Positions 8,441 through 41,242 of a stretch of DNA of 52,355 nt are shown one piece after another; position 1 is the stretch's first letter, and each line of letters opens with the position of its first letter. Position numbers and translations under genes: made by a program. The notes under the pieces were generated by a model. The model was given only the letters and a program-made list of their open reading frames with translations. It had not been told where the DNA came from and searched no databases. Source of the stretch: a virus. Its lineage: Duplodnaviria > Caudoviricetes. The DNA lies in IMG/VR virus record IMGVR_UViG_3300020183_000108, positions 1 to 52,355 of that record. One strand, 5' to 3'.

Positions 8441-11400
8441 ATGGCATCAGGTCTTTACTATGCACCGCTTGAGTTGGCAGAGAGCTTGGCTATGCCGGTT
8501 GCGCCGGAGAGCACTACACAAGCCTCTGGTTTGGGTAATCTCGGTGCTGCCGGTGATGTGTATGGCATCACCACTGTCGGCGGGAACGCCGGTGATATTT
8601 ATGGTCTCACACAGCAAGCTATGCAGAGGACCGCTGGGCTTGCACCTCCACTCCCGGCGCCGCCCACGGCAGCACCCGAAGGAACCGGCGCCGCTTTCTA
8701 TAGCCCGTCCACTGGTAAGATGTTCGCCGGTGGTATGGCGTTTGACCAGCGTGATGTTCAGTCGGCGCTTCGCGCAGCGCAGCAGTTTACCGCAGCCGCG
8801 GGTACTCGCCCTCCTCCAGATGTGCCTGACTGGCGACCCATATCGCGGGTGGCATATGAGAACTATCTTACTGGTTTGAGTGCCCCTCGCGGTTTCGGTG
8901 AGAACCTCGTACTTGGTGCACGCGGCGCTGTTGGTGGGTTTATCAGCGGTATTGGTCGCGGTGCTGAGATGCTTGGTGCCACTACGGTGGGTCCGGCTAT
9001 TGCAGGTGTTGGTGAAGCCATCACGGGTCAGGATGAATTTGACAAGCAACGGTCGGCGCTGATTCAACAGTCTAATTCGCTTGTCAGCAATATCCTTGAT
9101 GCTGCTGTGCAGGGCATCCCATCTGTCGCAATGTCAGCCGGTGCCGGTCTTGTGGGCGGTATCGTAGGCGGTGCCGTTGGCGGTCCTGCCGGTGCCGCTG
9201 CTGGTGCTACCACTGCCGCTACTGCGGCCCAAGCAGGTCGAGCCTTGGCTGCTGCGCGTGGTATCGGCGCTGTTGTTGGCCTTGGTGCGGTCAGCTTTCC
9301 TCAGCAACTCAATACGTTCTATGAAGCGGCGCAGAACGCCAGGGATGCGCAGGGTCGTCCGGCCTATGATGTAAACGACCCAAATGTTCAGCTTACCATC
9401 GCCGGTGCTGCTCTTGGTACATCGCTGCTTGACGTAATCGCCCCGGGTCGCGTCGCGTTTGGTCTATCTCGTGCCCTCACTGAAGGCGCTCAGCAGGCTG
9501 GGACTCAGGCCCTCACCGGGTTGGCCCGAGCCAGGGCAGTCGGCGGGAGCGCAGCTCGCAGCGGGTTTGAAGAAGCTGCCACTGAAGCCGCGCAGACCTT
9601 GGCTGAGCGGGCTGTATTTGACCCTGAGTTCCGTCGGCAGCTCAACGCCGAGGACATGAAGGCGCTTGCCCCATACATCGTCAACACGTATGGCCAGGAT
9701 GTTCTCATCGCAGCCGGTGCCGGTGCGCTTCTTGGTGCTGGATTCGGTGGTGCCGGTCGCTTCATCGAGACAAGGGGTGCAGGTTCTCAGCCGCGTGATA
9801 TCCTCGACCCGAAGCAGACCACTGCTGTTGGTGGCACGGATGCAGGCGAGACTGGTACCGAGCCCACAACCATAGGCGGCCCTCCTCCGGGTACTCCTCC
9901 GGGTACTCCTCCGGGTACTCCTCCGGGTACTCCTCCGGGTACGTCCGGCGTTTCTACTCGCGTTGTTTCTACCTCCCCCGGCGCACTCACTATTGCCCCT
10001 GGGGCTATGGATTTAACGCAGACCGGTTATCTCCAGGCATATGCGCGGCGTATGCCTGATCCCCTTGGTGTTGCCGGTTTTGGTGGTGCGGATGATACGT
10101 TTAATCGTATGGTTTCAGGTCCTGCGCCGGGTACCGAAGCCCCGCTGACATCTTATATCTATCCGGGGCCTATTCTTACTGAGCCCGAACTGACCACTCA
10201 ACCTCGCACTCCACTCAACGTAATCCCGGGTGCTCCTGCTGTTGCACCGTACACACCAACACCTACGGCACCTATTCCATCAGGGTCTCAACCGATTACT
10301 TTGGTGGCGCCGGGGGCCGACGCCCTTCGCGCACAGCGCGGGCTGACAGCTACGGCGCAGCAACGGCAGGTCGAGCAAGACATCCAATCTCGGGTGCAAG
10401 CCAACGCGAGTGCGCCACGTCCTGATGTTCTGTACGATCCGGCTGATCCTGGCACCACTCAACGTGCCATGCGGTCTCTCGGGGTTTCCATTGAGGAAGT
10501 GCTTAGGTTGCGCGACCCTATGCGCGCTATGGCTGGTGCGCCGGTTACGCTTAGGGATGTTAACGAAGCTGCGGCTTTGCTTGGCCGCACCCGCGCCTCC
10601 GGTGCTGTAGCGGTTCGCCCTACCCCGGAAGTGTCTTCCATTATGGCACAAGCCATGCGGGATGCCGGGCTGACTGTTGAAGATGTGGTAGCGGCACGCA
10701 ACCGCCTACGCAGTGGCCCGGTTACTTATGAAGATGTGCGCATTGCTGCCCGGCGCAAGGGTACGGAACTACCGGTTCGTATGGCTCGGACTGCGGCCCC
10801 TGAGCCTATGGTTGAGACGGCTCTCCCTCCTGCGCTTGAAGCACTTGCTGCGGCCCCTACGCCTACGCCTACGCCCGCAACCAAGCTCAAGAAAGGAAAA
10901 GCTCGTGCCGCTCAAGTCAGGGAAGACGAACAAGGTGGTGTCGGCCAACGTACAGGAACTGGTGGACCGGTACCAAGCAAAGGGGAAGATCGGCTCAAGT
11001 CGACCAAAAAACAAAGAGGCGGCGGTCAAACAGGCCGTAGCAATCTCACTCGCCAAGGCCGGGCGGCAGCGCAAGAAGTAACACCTGCACCGGCCACGGA
11101 GGTGGCCGCTCAGCGCCCTTTAGAGCAGCCCGCGCCAAGCGCGACAGAAAGAGCGGCTCCATCCGTAACTCCAAGGGCTGAGGCTGCGGCACCAAGTGCG
11201 GTAGATCGTCAGATCACCCGGGCGGCTACCAGTGCCGACCCGACGGCACAGCTTCGTACACTGAAGAATGAACTGATCACGCGGCGCGACGCGACCGCTG
11301 ATGCTGGTCGCAGTACGACTGAACTGACCGGCGCAATTGCGCGTATTGATGCGCTGCTTGCCGAAGGCCCGATCACCACACCGGCTGTCGAAGGTGTGTC

Positions 11401-14400
11401 CGGTCCGGGTTCACCGCAGTCCGTCTGGGCTTCGGCCATGAACGATGATGGTGTTGGTTACACCCAGATGTCTGAAGATGGTCGCCGCGCTTGGGATAAC
11501 GAAGTGGCTACCAGTCCTGTGCCGCCCACTGCGGAACGGGCTCAGTATTACCAAGACACGTTTCTGCCCCAAGATACCCAGCGCGGCATCAGTTACGTGC
11601 GCAGCCTTGCCAGCAAGCTGGCATCTGCCAGCGATGAGCGATACATTCAGATCACTGAGAAGCTGAGTGAGTTGGCCAGCTCTGATAACCAACGTGTTGC
11701 CGCTGAAGCGCAGCGTGCCCTGGATGGTGAACTATCTGGTACGCCCGGTAAGTTCTCTCTTGCCGGATGGAATACCCGTCAGGGGACGGTCAGCGCCGAT
11801 GGTTCACCCACCACACCGATGGCTGTCGGTCGGGTGCGGATGCTTGTCAATAACTTCGTAGCTAAACTGGCAACCAAACCGAAGGTCACGGTGGTGGCCA
11901 ACCAGCAGGAACTACAGCGCACCAACCCGGCGCTGTATCAGCAAGCCATGGCTGCTCGCCCGCAGGGTGACTTCGCCACGGCCAACGCTGCTGGGTACTC
12001 CTTCGGTGACGGCAACGTCATCATCTTCACTGACCGTATTGTCAATGAGCAGCACCTGCGGTTCGTGCTGGCCCATGAGACCTTCGGCCACTTCGGTATG
12101 CGCGGGATCATGCCCGCAGCGCGCTTCGATGCGCTTATGGAAAACATCTATGAGACAGATGGAAGCGCCAAGCTGGCAGTTGATGCCGCTATGGAAGTGC
12201 GCGGGCTGAGCAAGGCCGAGGCCGTTGAGGAGTATCTATCTGACTACGCTGGGCTGCTTGAGACCAGCACGGTTGCCCGGGTGTGGAACACTATCAAGGG
12301 CTTCCTTGAACGCCTCGGTGTGAAGTTCGGTGATACAGCCACTCGGTACTTCCTTGACCAGTCGCGCCGTTATGTGCGGCAGGGTGCCCAGGGTGTGACC
12401 TTTGATGCAGAGGCGGTGGCAAAGCGGCTGCACGCTGTTGAGTACGGCGATACCGGCACTGGCCGGTTCAGCCCGCAGGCAGCGATGAGCGCCAATGCGA
12501 AGGCCAACTTCTTCGCATCACAACTGGCCGAGTTTCCGACAAGCTTGGCTGATGCTTGGAACACAATCACCGACCAGAAAGAGAATATAGCTGATATATA
12601 CACGGACTTTAAGAACAAGTTCCTCAGCCTTGCAAATTACACCGGGTTGAAGAATCCGGGGGCATTCAAGTTTGTCGATTTATTGAGCCAGACCAATTCA
12701 AAATCTATGGCAGTTAAGTCAGCATTAAATGAATACCTGCGCCCTGTGCTCGATGCTCCCAAGGCTGTGCAAGATAAAATCTCACGCGCCATGTATAGTG
12801 CACGTAGTTACAAGATCAGTCAGTTCAAAGCCGGGGAACTCGGCAAAGAACCTCTGTTCAAGGTTGCTGCTGATGGTAGCCTCACCCCAAATACGGCTGA
12901 GCAAGATCGGATTTTCAAAGCCGGTCTGATGACACTCAAGCAGATTCAAGATGGCTACTCGTACAACCGTGAGATCGAAGGTACTGATGGTAAAGTCACC
13001 ACGGTAGAGGAAACCGTGGCCGGTCAAAAGGACTTCACCAAAGAAGATTACGCTTTGTACGAGCGTACTCGGCGCGCTGTATTCAATGTTGAGATGCAGC
13101 TACTCGAAGCCGAGTATGGCGAGCTCATGGCTAATAAGCGCCTGACCAACAAAGAAATCAGTGGGTTCATGGCAGATAACAAACTCACTGCTGAGGATCG
13201 TCGCTTCGTTGATTCTATGGCACGCCGCGCACTGGCTCTCTACACCGAGGGTGCCGGTACTGACCCCACAGGTAACGCTGTGATTGACCCGAAAGCCATG
13301 AAGAAGTCCGATGATTTCTTGGCCGCTGTTAATACTGCGGTGATCGGCACTGATACAGACCGCACTGAAGCGCCCGATGTCAAAACCGGCTTGAGGATAC
13401 GCGACTACTTTGTTTCGCCGCAGGCGGCTGATGCGTTCATCACTGAGCTGACCGCGTTTAAGAATCGTCGTCGGGAGATCACTGATGACAATAGGTTCTT
13501 CCTACAAGGGAAAGTGAAGCAACTCATTCTCAACGAACACAACCTGAACACCAGGGATAAGATCGCACGCCGCGCTGTGATGACCGGATACACCCCGGTG
13601 TTGCGTGAAGGTAGGTTTCAGACCCGCGTTCAGGCATATGTTGGTAATAAGCTCGTTGAGGTAAAAGACGCGCATAAGGCGCTGCTTTCCTACTCTCAGT
13701 TTAACACCGGGCCAGAAGCTAAAGCTATGGCTGTAATGCTCGATAAGGAGTTCGAGGGTAAGACGTTTGAGGTTTTGGTACGCAATGACGCCGGTGAGTT
13801 TGTGCCCACCAGGGTGACGCTTCGTGCTACGACCGGGCGCACAGTGAATGCCGTAGCCGCTGATCCACAGCTTAACCTACAAGATTTCCTGTATGGGCTG
13901 AACCTGTTCAACGTAAATCTCAACCCGGAGAGCATGGCACGTATTGTTACTACGCTGTCGCGTCAGGGTGATAGCGCACGCAGGCGGTTGGAGTACTCTC
14001 AGACCCCCGGTTTCGATCCAACCACCGGTGTCTATGCCATCTCACGGCATATTGAGGGTCGTGCTTCCACCATTGCTAAGGCCAGCACGCGGCAGGCGCT
14101 GCGCGAACTGATGAACCTCGAACTCCCTGAATCACGCACCCTGTGGACGGGTAACAAGCCCCTGGTAGATCAGTTGCAGGCTGAGTTGAACAGACTCAAT
14201 GCCGACCCAAATGCGTCCGAGGATGCCAAGCGGTACACGCTGCAACAACTCACACAGGCGCAGTATCAATACCGCATGACCAACCCAGAGGGGCGTCCTG
14301 AACGCTCTATGATGTTCTATAACCAGTCTGCCTCCACCATGGACTACCTTGAGGGCAGCAAGTATGTAGATGAGACCGACTTCGGCGCAGGTCCTGTTGC

Positions 14401-15982
14401 TTCTCGGGTCCGTGCTTACACCAGCATATGGCAGCTTGGCGGCAGCATGGCTCAGGGTGTCCTGAACCTGATCAGCCCGTACACTAACTGGATGCCATAC
14501 ATGGCTAGCTTCAATGCAAAGAGCGGCTTCGGTGGCGGGTTCAGTATCGGTAAGGTGCAGGCAGCTTACCACTCAGCTTTCCGTCAGGTGGGTGCGCCGG
14601 GTATTCTCCGCATGGAGATGAACCGGGCTGAGTTCTATGACAACGTGGCCAAAGACCCAGCCCTCCAAAAGAAACACGGTCTGACGGTTGATGAAGCTCA
14701 GGCAATCGCCACTGAAATCCGTGAAGGTAAGCTGATTCCGGCGCAGTCAAATGCACTCATTGCCACTGCGCGGGGGCAAACAACCAACAAGTTTCTGCGT
14801 AAGTTTATCGACGGGTACATGCTCCCGTTTAACTTGTCCGAACAGGCGGCCCGTCGTGCGGCTTTCTTGGCTGCGTACCGCTTGAAGCGGGATCAGGCCC
14901 TCGGCGCCGGTAAGTCTCAGAAGGAAGCACAGCAGGAAGCAAGTGACTTCGCGGTGAAGTCCATCGACCTGACTTTAGGGGATTACTCGGTTCTGAACCG
15001 GCCACCCGCGTTCCGGGCTGGCATCACATCCTTCCTCTATATGTACAAGACGTACCCGACCACCACGATCCAGTTACTGGCCAATCTGTCCCGGCCTGCG
15101 CAACTATCCATGCTGGCAGGGCTGTGGTTCCTTTCCGGCGCTGCGGGTCTGCCGTTTGCTGAGGACCTTGAAGACCTTATTGATACCATCTCGCAGAAAC
15201 TAGGGTTCCGGCAAGGTAGCATCCGGGGTGAGATCATCAAGCACATCGAGGCTACGTTCCCTGGCATGTCAGCGCCGTTCCTCAAGGGCTTGGTAAATGA
15301 GTTCCTGCCAATACCCATGGACATCGCTTCTCGTACTTCTGTTGGTAACATCGTCCCTGGTTCTGGGATTGCCTTGGCTGGGGCAGATGTGGGACGTGAA
15401 GTTCTTGATATTCTCGGCCCCGCACCCGGTTTCCTCCTCGGCGCCGCTTCGATGGCGCGTAACTTGGTGGCGTTCCCGTTCTCGTCACGGGTAAGCCTGG
15501 AAGATGTGGCCCGGGAATCGCCGATCACCCTGCTCCGGTTAATGGGTGACTCGTACGCTTACCTACAGTCGGGTGCCGTGGTTGACCGCCGTGGGTATGT
15601 GGTCAGTAAGGATATGGATGCGGGGACCATTCTTACTCGGTTGTTTGGTTTCTACCCCACGCAGGCGGCAAACCAGTACGATGTTATCCGCATCGCCAAC
15701 CGCACCACTGACTACCAGAAGGAAGCCGTGGCTTCGTTCCGTCACGCTTGGATCAAGGCTACCCTGCGCGGTGATACGCAGACAGCCAACGAGATCATGA
15801 ACGACGTGCGCGAATGGAACAACGCCACACGCGGCACCCCACTGGAAATCAGGAACTTCTCAACTGGTAACGCCAGGGCATTGCGTGAGGCTCGGCGGTC
15901 AGCGAGTGAGCGCGCACTGCGCGCGGCACCCCAGGCAGCACAGGGAGACATCCGGGGGTATATCGACGCCCTGATCGATTAG
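8441..15982 (+). CDS. Giant ejected polyvalent protein with zincin metallopeptidase domain
   Basis: 2513 aa. N-terminal glycine-zipper/TM region, LAHETFGH...AVEEYLS zincin motif at 12074-12091, and a C-terminal helical region typical of large podophage ejection proteins. Confidence 0.8.
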   Translation: MASGLYYAPLELAESLAMPVAPESTTQASGLGNLGAAGDVYGITTVGGNAGDIYGLTQQAMQRTAGLAPPLPAPPTAAPEGTGAAFYSPSTGKMFAGGMAFDQRDVQSALRAAQQFTAAAGTRPPPDVPDWRPISRVAYENYLTGLSAPRGFGENLVLGARGAVGGFISGIGRGAEMLGATTVGPAIAGVGEAITGQDEFDKQRSALIQQSNSLVSNILDAAVQGIPSVAMSAGAGLVGGIVGGAVGGPAGAAAGATTAATAAQAGRALAAARGIGAVVGLGAVSFPQQLNTFYEAAQNARDAQGRPAYDVNDPNVQLTIAGAALGTSLLDVIAPGRVAFGLSRALTEGAQQAGTQALTGLARARAVGGSAARSGFEEAATEAAQTLAERAVFDPEFRRQLNAEDMKALAPYIVNTYGQDVLIAAGAGALLGAGFGGAGRFIETRGAGSQPRDILDPKQTTAVGGTDAGETGTEPTTIGGPPPGTPPGTPPGTPPGTPPGTSGVSTRVVSTSPGALTIAPGAMDLTQTGYLQAYARRMPDPLGVAGFGGADDTFNRMVSGPAPGTEAPLTSYIYPGPILTEPELTTQPRTPLNVIPGAPAVAPYTPTPTAPIPSGSQPITLVAPGADALRAQRGLTATAQQRQVEQDIQSRVQANASAPRPDVLYDPADPGTTQRAMRSLGVSIEEVLRLRDPMRAMAGAPVTLRDVNEAAALLGRTRASGAVAVRPTPEVSSIMAQAMRDAGLTVEDVVAARNRLRSGPVTYEDVRIAARRKGTELPVRMARTAAPEPMVETALPPALEALAAAPTPTPTPATKLKKGKARAAQVREDEQGGVGQRTGTGGPVPSKGEDRLKSTKKQRGGGQTGRSNLTRQGRAAAQEVTPAPATEVAAQRPLEQPAPSATERAAPSVTPRAEAAAPSAVDRQITRAATSADPTAQLRTLKNELITRRDATADAGRSTTELTGAIARIDALLAEGPITTPAVEGVSGPGSPQSVWASAMNDDGVGYTQMSEDGRRAWDNEVATSPVPPTAERAQYYQDTFLPQDTQRGISYVRSLASKLASASDERYIQITEKLSELASSDNQRVAAEAQRALDGELSGTPGKFSLAGWNTRQGTVSADGSPTTPMAVGRVRMLVNNFVAKLATKPKVTVVANQQELQRTNPALYQQAMAARPQGDFATANAAGYSFGDGNVIIFTDRIVNEQHLRFVLAHETFGHFGMRGIMPAARFDALMENIYETDGSAKLAVDAAMEVRGLSKAEAVEEYLSDYAGLLETSTVARVWNTIKGFLERLGVKFGDTATRYFLDQSRRYVRQGAQGVTFDAEAVAKRLHAVEYGDTGTGRFSPQAAMSANAKANFFASQLAEFPTSLADAWNTITDQKENIADIYTDFKNKFLSLANYTGLKNPGAFKFVDLLSQTNSKSMAVKSALNEYLRPVLDAPKAVQDKISRAMYSARSYKISQFKAGELGKEPLFKVAADGSLTPNTAEQDRIFKAGLMTLKQIQDGYSYNREIEGTDGKVTTVEETVAGQKDFTKEDYALYERTRRAVFNVEMQLLEAEYGELMANKRLTNKEISGFMADNKLTAEDRRFVDSMARRALALYTEGAGTDPTGNAVIDPKAMKKSDDFLAAVNTAVIGTDTDRTEAPDVKTGLRIRDYFVSPQAADAFITELTAFKNRRREITDDNRFFLQGKVKQLILNEHNLNTRDKIARRAVMTGYTPVLREGRFQTRVQAYVGNKLVEVKDAHKALLSYSQFNTGPEAKAMAVMLDKEFEGKTFEVLVRNDAGEFVPTRVTLRATTGRTVNAVAADPQLNLQDFLYGLNLFNVNLNPESMARIVTTLSRQGDSARRRLEYSQTPGFDPTTGVYAISRHIEGRASTIAKASTRQALRELMNLELPESRTLWTGNKPLVDQLQAELNRLNADPNASEDAKRYTLQQLTQAQYQYRMTNPEGRPERSMMFYNQSASTMDYLEGSKYVDETDFGAGPVASRVRAYTSIWQLGGSMAQGVLNLISPYTNWMPYMASFNAKSGFGGGFSIGKVQAAYHSAFRQVGAPGILRMEMNRAEFYDNVAKDPALQKKHGLTVDEAQAIATEIREGKLIPAQSNALIATARGQTTNKFLRKFIDGYMLPFNLSEQAARRAAFLAAYRLKRDQALGAGKSQKEAQQEASDFAVKSIDLTLGDYSVLNRPPAFRAGITSFLYMYKTYPTTTIQLLANLSRPAQLSMLAGLWFLSGAAGLPFAEDLEDLIDTISQKLGFRQGSIRGEIIKHIEATFPGMSAPFLKGLVNEFLPIPMDIASRTSVGNIVPGSGIALAGADVGREVLDILGPAPGFLLGAASMARNLVAFPFSSRVSLEDVARESPITLLRLMGDSYAYLQSGAVVDRRGYVVSKDMDAGTILTRLFGFYPTQAANQYDVIRIANRTTDYQKEAVASFRHAWIKATLRGDTQTANEIMNDVREWNNATRGTPLEIRNFSTGNARALREARRSASERALRAAPQAAQGDIRGYIDALID
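9884..9943 (+). repeat. Five copies of a 12-bp tandem repeat encoding (PPGT)5
   Basis: cctccgggtact x4 followed by cctccgggtacg. Confidence 0.95.
10905..11081 (+). CDS. Nested (+1 frame) small basic phage protein of the MPLKxG...KQAVAI type
   Basis: AAGGA SD at 10893-10897, then GTG. Translation MPLKSGKTNKVVSANVQELVDRYQAKGKIGSSRPKNKEAAVKQAVAISLAKAGRQRKK*. Resembles a widespread standalone phage gene. Confidence 0.72.
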   Translation: MPLKSGKTNKVVSANVQELVDRYQAKGKIGSSRPKNKEAAVKQAVAISLAKAGRQRKK

Positions 15983-34858: not shown

Positions 34859-34895
34859 ACAATCTATTTTTAGGGGGGACAATCTATTTTTAGGG
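34859..34895 (+). repeat. Direct repeat ACAATCTATTTTTAGGG x2
   Basis: Copies at 34859-34875 and 34879-34895. Confidence 0.92.
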
Positions 34896-35243
34896 ATGGT
34901 GTAGATTGAAAAATAGATTATTTTTATGCTACGATTTCAGTGGGTTACGCCAACAATCTAAATAATCTGTTGGGAATGTGATAGGTTACGGTTTTTATTG
35001 GGGGGTATATAAGTTTACATGTAAAGGTATAGTATTATGCGTTCATCTTTTGTTCTGGGTCGCGCGCGAGGTGTTACTTTTTATATTAGATTAGATTATT
35101 AGATTGTGTAAAGACAATATATAATAGAATCAGTGGTTTACTTCGACAAAACTTATCACAAGTGTAAACTAACCAAGCAAACTTTACCAAAACATCCCCT
35201 GAAATAGATTTTTTAGCGTTAAGTTACAGTCACCTGGATACAC

Positions 35244-35256
35244 TAAGCTCTTGATT
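35244..35256 (-). promoter_or_regulatory. IHF consensus site
   Basis: AATCAAGAGCTTA matches WATCAANNNNTTR. Near matches on + at 35128-35140 and 34935-34947. Confidence 0.6.
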
Positions 35257-35383
35257 TTACTACAATCCAAACAATCTAACTGTATATGAGGCAGCTAGAG
35301 AACGCTATATGTAAGGTTTCACGATGTGCTTGTGAGGCGAGCTATAGGCCCCCGACGTATGGCGAGCGGAGCGAGCACGCTGC

Positions 35384-36412: not shown

Positions 36413-36442
36413 TTGACACTCACTCAACCGCCCAAATATCTT
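36413..36442 (+). promoter_or_regulatory. Sigma70 promoter for terS, probably leaderless
   Basis: TTGACA-18 bp-TATCTT ends 5 nt before ATG 36448. No SD. Confidence 0.65.
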
Positions 36443-36447
36443 ATCCT

Positions 36448-36909
36448 ATGCACATCGCACCTCACGAACCCACCCGATGGACCGAGAGACTGGCGTTTGA
36501 CATCGCCCTTCGGCTTGAGGGAAGCGGTGAAGATGTCAATGAGATACTAAATCGGCACCAGCTAGATGTTTCTGCCCTGCTGGTGTTCAACAAAGACCCG
36601 GTTTTTCTGCGCCAAGTAAGTAAGTTTCGTGATGAGATCAGGGATAAAGGCGTCACATTCCGTCTGAAAGCCCGCACACAGGCCGAAGAATTGCTGAAAA
36701 CATCCTGGGTGTTGATCCACAGCCCCGATGTGAGCCCTGCGGTGAAGGCTGATCTCATCAAATCGACCGTAAAGTGGGCTGGGTTAGAGCCAAAAGGCGA
36801 TGTTTCCGCAGAATCCGGTGCTGGTGGGGTGCGAATCACCATCAATCTCGGTGGGCAGGAGCTTGGTCCGACCAATCTGGTGGAGTCTGAGGCCGTTGAA
36901 GCCGAGTAA
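36448..36909 (+). CDS. terS: Terminase small subunit (putative)
   Basis: 153 aa helical protein ending GGVRITINLG. First gene of the arm, upstream of terL. Confidence 0.65.
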   Translation: MHIAPHEPTRWTERLAFDIALRLEGSGEDVNEILNRHQLDVSALLVFNKDPVFLRQVSKFRDEIRDKGVTFRLKARTQAEELLKTSWVLIHSPDVSPAVKADLIKSTVKWAGLEPKGDVSAESGAGGVRITINLGGQELGPTNLVESEAVEAE

Positions 36910-37075: not shown

Positions 37076-37250
37076 GGATGAGGGTTATCTGCTTCATTGC
37101 ATCCCGGTCAACGATCTGAGAGAGCATGTCGTTGATGATGATGGTACGTGCTGGTGTGATCCGGATTTTGACGCTGAGTATGAGATGTTCATCCACAATA
37201 GTGCGGATGGGCGGGAGGATTATGAGGAGGGGCGGCGCCTGCCGCACTGA
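37062..37250 (+). CDS. Small acidic His/Cys metal-binding protein
   Basis: HCIPVNDLREH...CWCDP...IHNSADGRE. Confidence 0.65.
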   Translation: MQDTEDEGYLLHCIPVNDLREHVVDDDGTCWCDPDFDAEYEMFIHNSADGREDYEEGRRLPH

Positions 37251-37258
37251 CCAAACCC

Positions 37259-38647
37259 ATGGCACTGGAAATCGACTATACCCCGCCGCCGACTGGGCGA
37301 CGGTTCATGGCTTCGGACGCTCGTATGCGCGTCCTTATGGGGCCGGTTGGTTCTGGCAAGTCCGTGACATCCTCATTCGAGATCGTGCGCCGGGCGACTA
37401 TGCAGCAGCCGGACCAGAACGGGCGCAGGCGGAGCCGAGCAGCCATTGTCCGTGAGACGGCAAGGCAGCTTCAGGACACCACGATCAAGACCTTCCTTGA
37501 CTGGTTCCCGCCGGGTCAGTGTGGTGACTATATGCGTACCACCAAGACCTACTTCTTCAAGGTTGGGGATGTTGAGTGTGAGATCATGTTTCGGGCATTG
37601 GATGATGCCGATGACGTGGCCAACCTCAACTCGCTTGAGCTGACCTTCGCATGGTTCAACGAGTGTCGGGACATCCATCCGGATATTGTTGACGCTATGT
37701 CAAAACGTATTGGCCGGTTCCCAAGCGCCAAGGACGGCGGGCCGACTTGGTTTGGGATGTGGGGCGATACCAACCCGCCGGTGATGGATTCGTGGTGGTA
37801 CTACCAGATGGAAGGGCTTAGCTCGGCAGATGGGGTCTCGCCTAACGACAATGGGTGGGCGGTGTTTAAGCAGCCCAGTGGCCGCAGCCCGCAGGCTGAG
37901 AACGTGGAGAACTTGCCGGATGGGTACTATGACACCCAGGGGCGGTCTGATGAGTATGTGCGGGTCTATATTGATGGGGAGTACGGGCTGTCCTCGGCGG
38001 GGATGCCCATTTATAAATACTTCCGGACGGACTATCACATGGCCAGGGCGCCTCTGCGGCACGTCACCAACGGTGTGCGTCCTATCGTGGTGGGGATGGA
38101 CCTGGGGCTTACACCGGCGGCTGTCATCGGACAGCAGGACCCACGCGGCAGGGCGCTCATACTGGATGAGGCGGTCAGCTTTGATATGGGGATACAGCGG
38201 TTCGTAAGGACGGTGCTCAAGCCCTTGCTGTATGAGCGGTTTCCGGGGGTGCCGGTGCTCGTGGTGACCGACCCGGCGGGCACACAGCGGGCGCAGACCG
38301 ATGAACGGAGCGCGGTGGACATCATCAAGGCTGAGGGGATGCGGGTCATATCTGCCCGGACGAATAGCGTTGCGGCACGCATCAACGCAGTGGATGAGTT
38401 TCTTATGCGGCAGGTGGACGGGGACCCGGCGTTCTTGGTTGACCCCAGGTGTACCCGGCTCAAGGCGGCTATGATGGGGGGCTATAGGTACAAACCCAAA
38501 GGGGACGGGGACATCGACAAGAACAAACACAGCCACGTGGCTGAGGCCCTTCAGTATCTGATGCTCCACATCGCCAACGCCAATGAGGGGTCGGCGGCCC
38601 ACTTCAAGAGACCGATCAAACCTATTGCGTCTGCTGGCTGGACCTGA
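37259..38647 (+). CDS. terL: Terminase large subunit
   Basis: Walker A GPVGSGKS, FAWFNE, GDTNPP, ENVENL, nuclease GMDLG and HSHVAEALQY. Confidence 0.93.
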   Translation: MALEIDYTPPPTGRRFMASDARMRVLMGPVGSGKSVTSSFEIVRRATMQQPDQNGRRRSRAAIVRETARQLQDTTIKTFLDWFPPGQCGDYMRTTKTYFFKVGDVECEIMFRALDDADDVANLNSLELTFAWFNECRDIHPDIVDAMSKRIGRFPSAKDGGPTWFGMWGDTNPPVMDSWWYYQMEGLSSADGVSPNDNGWAVFKQPSGRSPQAENVENLPDGYYDTQGRSDEYVRVYIDGEYGLSSAGMPIYKYFRTDYHMARAPLRHVTNGVRPIVVGMDLGLTPAAVIGQQDPRGRALILDEAVSFDMGIQRFVRTVLKPLLYERFPGVPVLVVTDPAGTQRAQTDERSAVDIIKAEGMRVISARTNSVAARINAVDEFLMRQVDGDPAFLVDPRCTRLKAAMMGGYRYKPKGDGDIDKNKHSHVAEALQYLMLHIANANEGSAAHFKRPIKPIASAGWT

Positions 38648-38653
38648 TACTAT
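38625..38653 (+). promoter_or_regulatory. Sigma70-type promoter overlapping the terL stop
   Basis: TTGCGT-17 bp-TACTAT with extended TG. Confidence 0.55.
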
Positions 38654-38658
38654 ATCTT

Positions 38659-38741
38659 GTGTCCTTAGTCCGAGGACACCTGGCTTTGTTCATTCCTCCC
38701 CGAAACTAGCCCCCTGTAGCTGCCTCTACAGGGGGTTTTTT
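38659..38741 (+). ncRNA. Candidate ~83-nt sRNA with anti-SD seed
   Basis: Own promoter, 5' hairpin GTGTCCT/AGGACAC, unpaired TTGTTCATTCCTCCCC and an intrinsic terminator. Confidence 0.5.
38710..38741 (+). terminator. Intrinsic terminator
   Basis: CCCCCTGTAG-ctgcct-CTACAGGGGG-TTTTTT. Confidence 0.9.
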
Positions 38742-38749
38742 CTTATCCC

Positions 38750-38778
38750 TTGCATCGATGGCGTTTAGCGGCTACCTT
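38750..38778 (+). promoter_or_regulatory. Sigma70-type promoter for the head gene operon
   Basis: TTGCAT-17 bp-TACCTT, immediately after the terminator. Confidence 0.55.
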
Positions 38779-38808
38779 ACCCAAATCGCGCCGTAAAAGG
38801 GATTGATT

Positions 38809-39165
38809 ATGGCCACTGTTTCCCCAGTTCTTAGCCGCACTGCCGAGGGTGTACCCTATCTCCTGTGGGAGAATGTCGCCACGGGTGACACGTTGCAGCC
38901 TTACGCTGTTCACGCACGCCTGGGGCTTGATGCCTCAGTGCAGTTTGCTGGTACGTTTGGTAGCGCCACAGTCAAGTTGCAGCAGTCGAATGACAACGCG
39001 GCGTACTTTGACATGAAGGATACCGCTGGCACCACGGTAAGTGCTACGGCTGCGGCGCTGTTCAACTTCAGCTCGGCTGCTGTGTACCTTCGCCCGGCGA
39101 TCACCGGTGGGACCGGAGATGCAGTTGATATCTACCTTGTTCTTCGCGGCAACGCGCAGGCTTGA
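38809..39165 (+). CDS. Virion structural protein (beta-sandwich)
   Basis: VQFAGTFGSATVKLQQSND...YLRP, upstream of the portal gene. Confidence 0.6.
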   Translation: MATVSPVLSRTAEGVPYLLWENVATGDTLQPYAVHARLGLDASVQFAGTFGSATVKLQQSNDNAAYFDMKDTAGTTVSATAAALFNFSSAAVYLRPAITGGTGDAVDIYLVLRGNAQA

Positions 39166-39172
39166 TCGGTAG

Positions 39173-41242
39173 ATGCCAGGACTTACCATACTCCGCGTCG
39201 TCAGCAACAGTGAGATCGAACGCGCTGAGCGTGAACGTATGGATGCCGAGCTTCAGGCTCGGCAAAACAGCGATCTCATCACGGGTTTTTCAGCGTACCT
39301 CAAGACGTGTTGGGATGCTGCGCGTATTGCCAAGGACCCGATCAACGATGTGATGCTCAGAGCTCTCCGTCAGCGCAACGGGGAGTATGAGGCGGATAAA
39401 CTTCAGGCGATTCGCGTTCAGGGCGGGTCTGAGGTTTACATGATGCTGACGGAAGTCAAGTGCCGTGCAGCAGAGAGTTGGCTTCGTGACATTCTTCTGG
39501 ATACCGGCTCGCCCCCCTGGGACATGCAACCTACGCCGATTCCTGACTTGTCCCCCGAACAGTCAGAGGAGGTTCAGCTCGCCTTTGCTGAGCAGGTGGT
39601 AAATATCATCCAATCCACCGGTCAGGCGCCGGACAAGACCCAGATGCTGGAACTCAGGGAGATGGTTTCCCAGGACTACCGGTTTAAGGTCTTGCAGGCC
39701 GCTCAAGCGCGCGTTGATCGGATGAAGATCAAGATTGATGACCAGTTTGCTCAGGGTGGTTGGGCCGATGCGTTCAACGAGTTCCTGACCGATCTGGTAA
39801 CCTTCCCCTGCGCCTTCCTCAAAGGGCCTATCGTGCGCCGTCAGCGCCACTTGGGTTGGGCCAAGGGTCCCGGAGGTGCGACCACCGTAGAAGCCGCTGA
39901 GCGGCTTGCGCCGGAGTTTGAGCGGGTCAGCCCATTCAATATCTACCCCGAGCCGGGTATCACCCGAATCAACGACGGGTATATTTTCGAGCATCATAAG
40001 CTGAGTCGGTCAGCACTGGCTGATCTTATCGGCGTGCCCGGGTATGATGATCAGGCGATTCGCAAGGTACTTAATGAGGGGCCAAGCCAGACCTGGGTGT
40101 CTGAGCCGACCGAGATGCAGCGTGAGGAGGAGGAGCGCAAATACTATACCGAGTTGCGCCCGACCGATATGTTCGATGCCCTTGAGTTCTGGGGTAAGGT
40201 CAGCGGCAAGATGCTTCGTGAGTGGGGCATGGATGCTTCTGAGGTACCTGATGAGGCCAAGGAGTACGATGCAAACGCTTGGCTTGTGGGCAATTATGTC
40301 ATCAAAGCCATCCTCAACTACGATCCATTGGGTGAGAAGCCCTATGTAAAGACCTCGTTCATCAAGATGCCGGGTGCCTTCTGGGGTCGCGCTATCCCAG
40401 AGATTATTGAGGATTTGCAGAATGTCTGCAACGCCGCCGCCCGGGCCTTGGTGAACAACATGAGCATCGCTTCCGGCCCACAGGTCGAGGTGAATCTTGA
40501 GCGCATCCCGCCCAACGAAGACATCACGCAAGTTCACCCTTGGAAAATTTGGCAGACGCTGAACGATCCCCTGGGTTCTTCTGCCCCGGCGGTCCGGTTC
40601 AACCAGCCGAACGACAATGCCGCCACCCTGATGGGTGTGTACGAGCGGTTCAGCCGACTGGCTGATGACCATTCAGGCATTCCGGCCTACATCTACGGTG
40701 ACACCAACGTGCAGGGGGCTGGGCGCACGGCTTCTGGCTTGTCGATGCTTATGGGGTCGGCGGGTAAGAGCATTCGGCAAGTGGTGATGCACATTGATTC
40801 GGATGTCACCAAGCCCATTGTTCAGCGTCAGTTTGTTTACAATATGCGTTACGATCCTGATGAGTCCATCAAGGGTGACGCGCAAATTATACCCCGCGGT
40901 GCTATCAACCTCGCGGTTCGTGAGACAGTCAACCTCCGGCGTGTTGAGTTCCTCAATGCTACTGCCAATGAGTTTGATATGCAGATTATTGGGGCTGACG
41001 GGCGTGCAGCCATCCTACGCGAAGTGGCTAAGGGGCTTCAGATGCCTGCCGAGGACATCGTACCCTCCCGTGAGCGGTTGGATTATCAGGCCCGAGTGCA
41101 GGCCCTTGGTCAACAGGCGCAGCAAGCCGCTTCAGCTCAACAGGGTGGTGCGGCCCCAAGGACGCTCGATCAGGCCGGTAATCCGGCGGGTGGCGCAGCG
41201 GCTACGGTAGTACGAAACCAGAACACGGGTACCGCAGGTTGA
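39173..41242 (+). CDS. Portal protein
   Basis: 689 aa. ERVSPFNIYPEP, GAFWGRAIPE, NNMSIASGPQ and GRTASGLSMLM. Position between terL and scaffold. Confidence 0.9.
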   Translation: MPGLTILRVVSNSEIERAERERMDAELQARQNSDLITGFSAYLKTCWDAARIAKDPINDVMLRALRQRNGEYEADKLQAIRVQGGSEVYMMLTEVKCRAAESWLRDILLDTGSPPWDMQPTPIPDLSPEQSEEVQLAFAEQVVNIIQSTGQAPDKTQMLELREMVSQDYRFKVLQAAQARVDRMKIKIDDQFAQGGWADAFNEFLTDLVTFPCAFLKGPIVRRQRHLGWAKGPGGATTVEAAERLAPEFERVSPFNIYPEPGITRINDGYIFEHHKLSRSALADLIGVPGYDDQAIRKVLNEGPSQTWVSEPTEMQREEEERKYYTELRPTDMFDALEFWGKVSGKMLREWGMDASEVPDEAKEYDANAWLVGNYVIKAILNYDPLGEKPYVKTSFIKMPGAFWGRAIPEIIEDLQNVCNAAARALVNNMSIASGPQVEVNLERIPPNEDITQVHPWKIWQTLNDPLGSSAPAVRFNQPNDNAATLMGVYERFSRLADDHSGIPAYIYGDTNVQGAGRTASGLSMLMGSAGKSIRQVVMHIDSDVTKPIVQRQFVYNMRYDPDESIKGDAQIIPRGAINLAVRETVNLRRVEFLNATANEFDMQIIGADGRAAILREVAKGLQMPAEDIVPSRERLDYQARVQALGQQAQQAASAQQGGAAPRTLDQAGNPAGGAAATVVRNQNTGTAG

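Follow-up and report, generated by a model that had tools for sequence, protein, structure and literature searches.

Candidate small RNAs with an exposed anti-Shine-Dalgarno stretch at the end of terL in an environmental phage lineage

What occupies the 161 nucleotides (nt) that separate terL, the gene for the terminase large subunit, from the next gene in a tailed-phage record of IMG/VR (IMGVR_UViG_3300020183_000108; 52,355 bases with a completeness estimate of 95%, the whole of which is referred to here as the window)? A sequence-only reading of this locus had proposed a small RNA (sRNA) bearing an anti-Shine-Dalgarno (anti-SD) seed between terL and the head genes, a proposal that held in respect of a discrete non-coding unit, an exposed motif and the same architecture in relatives, but not in respect of the phage targets put forward for it. 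Judged by comparative analysis the unit is real: conserved, structured, present in single copy and equipped with a conserved promoter signature, it is more than an isolated look-alike, and we infer that it is transcribed and acts in trans. The reading favoured here, held with about even confidence, is that it represents a new family of ~80-nt phage sRNAs acting via an exposed anti-SD seed.

According to this reading, host RNA polymerase would start near 38659-38660 from an extended -10 promoter, the TG of which is provided by the terL stop codon; a protective 5' hairpin would be followed by the exposed C/U-rich anti-SD stretch UUGUUCAUUCCUCCCC, and the RNA would end at the intrinsic terminator that also ends the terL mRNA. 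Because that terminator is common to the terL mRNA and the unit, the same RNA could also be released from the terL 3' untranslated region (UTR). Action in trans would most likely consist of pairing with the GGAG-type ribosome-binding sites of a few mRNAs, the translation of which would thereby be blocked.

The unit and its promoter signature

All of the elements that the sequence-only reading had listed at 38625-38741 were confirmed to be present. Together with terL, the components of the unit, as established from the list of open reading frames (ORFs), the sequence itself, minimum free energy (MFE) folding and a terminator scan, are as follows.

37259..38647, + strand: terL, terminase large subunit, last gene of the packaging operon (PHROG phrog_2, E 1.6e-26; ORF list)
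38625..38630, + strand: -35-like hexamer TTGCGT, within terL codons (sequence)
38645..38653, + strand: extended -10 TGaTACTAT (TACTAT at 38648-38653), 17-nt spacer from TTGCGT (sequence; conserved in relatives)
38659..38660, + strand: predicted transcription start, 6-7 nt past the -10 (from spacing)
38659..38679, + strand: 5' hairpin GUGUCCUU / GAGGACAC, 8 pairs (MFE)
38680..38709, + strand: weak stem (CUGG..CUAG, UUUG..CGAA) holding the seed in a 12-nt loop (MFE of the unit)
38686..38701, + strand: C/U-rich anti-SD seed UUGUUCAUUCCUCCCC, unpaired (MFE)
38708..38741, + strand: intrinsic terminator, 12 pairs (7 G-C), six T (terminator scan)

The TG of the extended -10 (38645-38646) is thus part of the terL stop codon TGA (38645-38647), and the single intrinsic terminator at 38708-38741 serves both terL and the small-RNA unit. 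The folding energy of the 85-nt RNA was -34.8 kcal/mol (z = -4.33), a value equalled by none of 200 shuffles.

Relatives of terL number at least 599 in IMG/VR, and the best 80 of these (84-95% amino acid identity) were examined; 79 downstream regions were long enough, and these yielded 52 unique intergenic regions, the terL-anchored set. A wider set of 70 unique terL-downstream regions was drawn from IMG/VR and from contigs of metagenome-assembled genomes (MAGs), and consisted of what was left of 72 regex-anchored sequences, taken from all loci, once one chance match and L171, which has no unit, had been removed. In almost all of the 52 regions the parts follow one another in the same order, with the terL TGA succeeded at once by TAnnnT, then 6-8 nt further on by a short hairpin, an unpaired C/U stretch, often a second hairpin, a CCCCC...GGGGG terminator, a promoter-like site and the first head-module gene. 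The terminator was present in every relative examined, and in the main clade the C/U-rich stretch reads GUUGUCACCUCC. The 15-mer GCAGTTGTCACCTCC occurred 85 times in IMG/VR, 51 of these in a terL-end context, while 16 of the 21 stretches with a window-type seed were located at a terL end, and these plus the window comprised only four sequence variants. Among distant relatives with 77-81% terL identity, L168 and L171 were without the unit and L169 carried a variant of it. Searches with a covariance model (see below) gave a single copy each for the window and the complete relatives G001 and G002; additional matches on the other strand, initially considered as second copies, proved on inspection of 12 to be plain terminators of other genes.

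The window promoter, taken alone and judged by its sequence, is no better than chance, and any significance it has comes only from conservation in relatives. A consensus promoter scan with a threshold of 9/12 positions did not list TTGCGT-17-TACTAT. By way of contrast, TAnnnT directly follows TGA in 50 of the 52 unique regions of the terL-anchored set, which is taken as the unbiased figure because the set of 70 demanded a downstream T-run and included loci found via the seed motif. Of the 70 unique sequences in that wider set, 66 had TGnTAnnnT placed exactly at the terL stop, with 20 different hexamers; the T, A and T positions carried 1.89, 1.71 and 1.89 bits of information, compared with 0.66, 0.26 and 0.21 bits at the other three hexamer positions and no more than 0.19 at each of the next five bases. 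This profile is that of a sigma-70 -10 element and not that of drifting shared ancestry. The hairpin start in relatives was found 6-8 nt past the -10. Sequence TTG at the -35 position occurred in 31 of 52 unique relatives, a count that does not allow a judgement, being confounded by the Val/Ile-Ala codons at that place.

The exceptions were themselves informative. In L113 (identical to L157) terL stops with TAA and the seed is closely preceded by a separate TGATAGAGT, such that the -10 is displaced, not lost; L041 has a displaced TATACT, and L079 has TAG followed by TATGGT. Because most exceptions to TGnTAnnnT show a displaced or alternative -10 in this way, the promoter signal is taken to be under selection of its own.

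Structure, exposure of the seed and covariation

The RNAs predicted from the set of 70 had a median length of 77.5 nt, and family-wide the C/U motif had a mean unpaired probability of 0.81 compared with 0.49 for the whole RNA. The sequence-only reading had made conservation of the seed a check on its proposal, and the C/U-rich anti-SD motif did recur unpaired in relatives: within RNA bodies CTCC occurred 109 times and GGAG once, and CCTCC 65 times and GGAGG not at all, where base composition alone, computed from the counts, would give a CTCC:GGAG ratio of ~13 to 1. Second hairpins were recorded in 55 RNAs with 28 distinct stems, and 32 of the 55 loops held another C/U motif.

Clades differ in the hairpins they deploy, in that the 5' hairpin is exchanged for other hairpins at the same place. 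Within the window clade, A-to-G changes in L005 convert pairs of the 5' hairpin to G-U pairs with retention of pairing, L002 has one mismatch, and L007 has a different 5' hairpin; comparable weak stems surround the seed in L005 and L007. In the main clade, hairpin 1 plus the following 12 nt is almost invariant in sequence.

When RNAalifold was applied to MAFFT alignments, hairpin 1 and the terminator were recovered and hairpin 2 was missed through misalignment, and for that reason a covariance model with a hand-set structure was adopted, built from 12 main-clade sequences. Run over 66 sources, this model returned 48 matches at E <= 1e-5, every one at a terL end. Its best match in the whole window was 38671-38744 (14.9 bits, E 0.0044), a first rank which supports homology of the window clade with the main clade. 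In the 48-sequence alignment 87.3% of cells were paired as opposed to 73.9% after shuffling, and none of 500 shuffles reached any observed measure, although these shuffle counts cannot be read as probabilities, given that the model itself shaped the alignment and that the aligned sequences are relatives of one another. With the partners slid by 1-3 columns, no more than 60.5% paired. The main-clade helix 1 was paired in 95.4%, and the terminator also shows compensatory changes. Covariance analysis in related phages, which the sequence-only reading had suggested as a test, hence spoke in its favour, with stems that covary and double-sided changes in 17 of the 19 pairs.

Targets, flanking operons and rival explanations

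Three partial matches of the seed to minus-strand initiation regions had been put forward as phage targets. The sites exist, and correspond to typical gene junctions of the phage (GAGG..UGAAC..AUG, the UGA in one being the stop of the upstream gene), but they do not rise above chance. Exact 8-mer matches to the seed complement in the window numbered 14 compared with 10.8 +/- 5.7 for shuffled seeds, 28% of which reached 14; the 16-mer complement with up to three mismatches had one non-self match in the window compared with 0.31 expected; a genome-wide duplex scan gave no enrichment at start sites; and a 12-mer search in five relatives returned counts near those of the reversed-pattern control. 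The 'anti-AUG' part ascribed to the seed was not upheld, CAU being neither conserved nor present in the main-clade motif GUUGUCACCUCC. The window-type seed string was also encountered outside the family in the unrelated phages L180, L189, L190, L192 and L198, and in at least L189 and L198 it lies antisense to a ribosome-binding site and ATG of the ordinary kind, which shows that the seed complement is generic.

Six terL-bearing contigs carried MAG labels, namely Micrococcales, Burkholderiaceae, Armatimonadia, an actinobacterium, Paraglaciecola and Gammaproteobacteria; no host was inferred from them because the mixture looks like binning noise. A blastn search of 50,697 phage records with the region found no match, and the closest cultured-phage match to terL by tblastn was Pseudomonas phage Rollin with no more than 45% identity.

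A number of results weigh against the sRNA reading. In a rough set of 80 window start regions the five best duplexes of the seed averaged -18.4 kcal/mol, while controls with CCUCC kept and the flanks shuffled averaged -20.6 +/- 1.4 kcal/mol, 93.5% of 200 being equal or better; the same test in the complete relatives gave controls as good or better in 75% (G001) and 16% (G002) of cases, neither being significant. The RNA and the first late gene's ribosome-binding site were not seen to co-vary (own pairs -17.3 versus -17.8 kcal/mol for others; median rank 0.57, with 3 of 67 below 0.1), and the best 12-mer matches in G001 and G002 lie within coding sequence. No target exceeded controls among the phage start regions tested in the window, G001 and G002. 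To this can be added that the window promoter agrees with the sigma-70 consensus at only 7 of 12 positions, that its -35 lies within coding sequence, and that 4 of the 70 relatives do not have TGnTAnnnT at the stop, one of which, L172, has no -10 and yet keeps the C/U-rich stretch, hairpin and terminator, with the implication that the unit can exist as a plain terL 3' UTR.

The rival explanations draw on the wider organisation of the phage. Its minus strand encodes its own DNA polymerase, a primase/helicase and a helicase, and its plus strand the packaging, head and tail genes. Scans covered 27 window proteins (25 against PHROGs, 7 against Pfam and 5 in both), with many small ORFs outside them; as none of these 27 was recognised as a phage RNA polymerase, sigma factor or antiterminator, host-type promoters are to be expected. 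Downstream of the unit lie the following features.

38750..38778, + strand: promoter-like site for the head operon, TTGCAT (38750-38755)-17-TACCTT (38773-38778) (sequence)
38809..39165, + strand: first gene after the unit, 118 amino acids, with neither a PHROG nor a Pfam match (ORF)
39173..41242, + strand: portal/adaptor gene (ORF; PHROG/Pfam portal/adaptor match)

The promoter-like site agrees with consensus at 6 of 12 positions and is conserved within the window clade, and TTGCAn-17/18-TAnnnT is also found behind the terminator in L002, L005, L007 and L015. Just before its -35, AUCCCUU (38745-38751) is complementary to AAGGGAU (38797-38803) in the SD region of the first late gene. In the MFE structure of a read-through transcript these two segments are paired, and their joint presence is restricted to read-through RNAs, which such pairing could keep untranslated. 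In the main clade the late promoter region TTGAC-N17-TGnTAGAAC, just past the unit terminator (e.g. L175:11895-11940, minus strand), holds a near-invariant TGTATACT box that contains the palindrome GTATAC and is kept in L052-type relatives without TTGAC or TAGAAC; this box may be an operator or the true -10.

Phage lambda has, directly upstream of its late morphogenesis genes, the cassette pR'-6S RNA-tR', composed of a promoter, a short terminated RNA and a terminator. A cis-acting boundary module of this kind, with a terminator read through under phage control and the short RNA as a by-product, is the main rival, a minority possibility but one to be taken seriously, since the unit is always immediately upstream of the head genes and the near-invariance of hairpin 1 and the following 12 nt in the main clade is what would be expected of a protein- or polymerase-binding site. 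Further support, which also counts against the sRNA reading, comes from L014-L020, a sister clade of the window clade with a first late protein clearly homologous to that of the window and with two tandem units (L014:2695-2930, L015:4387-4620). The second, similar unit of this clade sits between the late promoter TTGCAC-18-TAGGGT and the late gene, the ribosome-binding site of which starts ~20 nt past the second terminator's T-run, so that late transcription must pass a strong terminator; it is this leader position, as in attenuation and antitermination systems, that keeps the cis-acting explanation alive. Against it, the separate promoter-like site behind the terminator in the window and most relatives means that the late genes need no read-through, the scanned proteins included none that was Q-, N- or sigma-like (such proteins being diverse, and many small ORFs lying outside the scans), and neither an anti-SD motif nor the 109 to 1 ratio of CTCC to GGAG is explained by a cis module. 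The cis-acting and sRNA readings are not exclusive in any event, as terminated leaders can act as sRNAs. It is unlikely that the unit is a mere terL 3' UTR plus operon terminator, with an unused -10-like sequence and with the hairpin and C-rich stretch serving mRNA stability or a processed 3'-UTR fragment. Every terL transcript necessarily includes the unit sequence, and both L172 and the weak consensus match of the window promoter would suit that explanation, but a 3' UTR leaves unexplained a conservation that follows the -10 pattern, with T, A and T fixed and the inner bases free across the 20 hexamers, and neither the movement of the -10 with the RNA where the stop is TAA nor the fixed distance of 6-8 nt to the hairpin start is in keeping with it.

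Distinctly improbable is a general decoy, in which an abundant RNA copying the 3' tail of 16S ribosomal RNA (UCACCUCC in the main clade) would titrate SD sequences or a tail-binding factor and so favour leaderless phage mRNAs. The main-clade motif GUUGUCACCUCC has 8 nt in common with the 16S tail, the packaging operon seemingly opens with a leaderless gene both in the window and in 39 of 50 unique relatives, the first late gene of the L062/L079 clade likewise looks leaderless, and phage start regions, the first-late-gene ribosome-binding site and the 12-mer searches all failed to disclose a specific target. The window seed, however, shares only CCUCC with the 16S tail, good SDs precede the majority of the phage's own early and late genes, which would be affected too, and a weak promoter would have to deliver very high expression for a stoichiometric sponge to work. 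Least credible of all is a packaging or protein-binding site at the DNA level or a small protein-coding gene: the unit adjoins the terminase genes, and an ATG lies inside the -10 in the TATGCT and TATGAT variants, but the compensatory changes support RNA pairing, the signals are strand-specific, and the direct terminal repeats that mark the ends of the G001 record are ~4 kb from the unit, which lies inside it. A small ORF was rejected more directly, the hairpin 1 loop differing by 3, 4, 5 or 6 nt among close relatives with identical flanks, changes which break the frame, and the window having no ATG there.

As regards translation mode, the packaging operon of the window has TTGACA (36413-36418) and, after 18 nt, TATCTT (36437-36442) only 5 nt before the ATG at 36448. 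Among relatives, 77 loci matched the first protein of the operon, and the 39 unique upstream regions referred to above are those of 50 that fit TTGACA-N16-19-TAnnnT-N4-7-ATG, the -10-to-ATG gap being 6 nt in 35 of them and TGn preceding the -10 in 18. On this pattern the packaging operon appears to be leaderless. In L062 and L079 the first late gene starts 8 nt past a TACAAC box without an SD, and may also be leaderless. terL itself has no SD in the window clade (37230-37261 in the window), its ATG lying 9 nt past the stop of a 62-amino-acid ORF, and the SDs of terL in relatives are weak (median duplex -5.4 kcal/mol over 39 unique upstream regions). It is conceivable, if rather far-fetched, that the lineage runs an RNA-based translation-mode switch, in which the packaging operon (and in some clades the first late gene) would be leaderless and an operon-end RNA with the anti-SD tail UCACCUCC would mask SD-led host or early-phage mRNAs. 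The RegB shut-off of phage T4 cleaves at GGAG, and a switch of this type would, if true, be its RNA counterpart.

Elsewhere in the window, an AT-rich divergent region (34860-35300) separates the early minus-strand module from the packaging plus-strand module, and contains several promoter-like sites on both strands together with two copies of the direct repeat caatctatttttaggg at ~34860-34895. At the end of the structural module an ORF of 2513 amino acids (8441-15982) had PHROG matches only to families of unknown function, over its last 500 residues, and no Pfam match.

Comparison with known systems

Few phage-encoded base-pairing sRNAs are known, almost all from cultured coliphages and prophages, and a full-text literature search, at the level of its listings, found no paper describing an sRNA such as the one proposed here. 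The present candidate family was found by comparison alone, and is characterised by a fixed position, a promoter built into the terL stop and a large environmental lineage. If expressed, it would mean that anti-SD riboregulators are in use at the packaging/head boundary in virulent-type phages whose hosts are uncultured; together with the apparently leaderless packaging operon it offers a testable handle on the sorting of SD-dependent from SD-independent translation, and the alignment is ready to serve as the seed of a new RNA family.

A search of the whole window against Rfam 15 gave no match at gathering thresholds. Sub-threshold scores were recorded for NsiR1 (RF02399; 22.8 versus 39 bits), suhB/mmgR (RF00519; 20.9 versus 41) and anti-hemB (RF02837; 17.3 versus 49.5), with G001 reaching 22.4 bits against the last of these. 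All three resemble the unit as short sRNAs in which a CCCC...GGGG terminator comes after an unpaired, C-rich segment, but the scores are about half those required for gathering and the matches rest largely on the terminator.

As in the lambda cassette, a promoter, a short terminated RNA and a terminator precede the head genes. The phage unit differs in having a further promoter-like site past the terminator and a conserved anti-SD motif in its RNA, and in that no Q-like gene was found among the window proteins scanned; the dependence on read-through, with no downstream promoter, that typifies lambda was not observed in the window and applies only to the second unit of L014-L020.

The alpha-r14/cuckoo sRNAs (NfeR1 of Sinorhizobium, CcsR1-4 of Rhodobacter) are comparable in presumed mode of action. 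According to PMC10746234 they expose unpaired anti-SD motifs while their stems vary, have three hairpins each showing an identical CCUCCUCCC, and repress by occluding ribosome-binding sites. The phage unit likewise exposes a C/U-rich anti-SD stretch, predicted to be a seed complementary to ribosome-binding sites as in anti-SD riboregulators generally, and many relatives have a second C/U motif in the hairpin-2 loop; it differs in replicon and genomic context. Membership of that family was rejected, in that the window has a single CCUCCCC stretch and no CCUCCUCCC, and no such family appeared among the 12 Rfam matches at E <= 10.

With regard to its origin at the end of a gene, the unit is most readily compared with the 3'-end sRNAs DapZ of Salmonella and MicL of E. 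coli. The promoter of DapZ, according to PMC9438474, lies just upstream of the parental stop codon, and the terminator of the mRNA is shared. The phage unit shows both features of this class in silico, namely a promoter at the end of the upstream coding sequence and a terminator shared with the parental mRNA, and likewise specifies a short RNA from a promoter located where the upstream ORF ends, at or within its final codons; by way of contrast, its -10 overlaps the stop codon itself, its seed is a generic anti-SD, and it is phage-borne.

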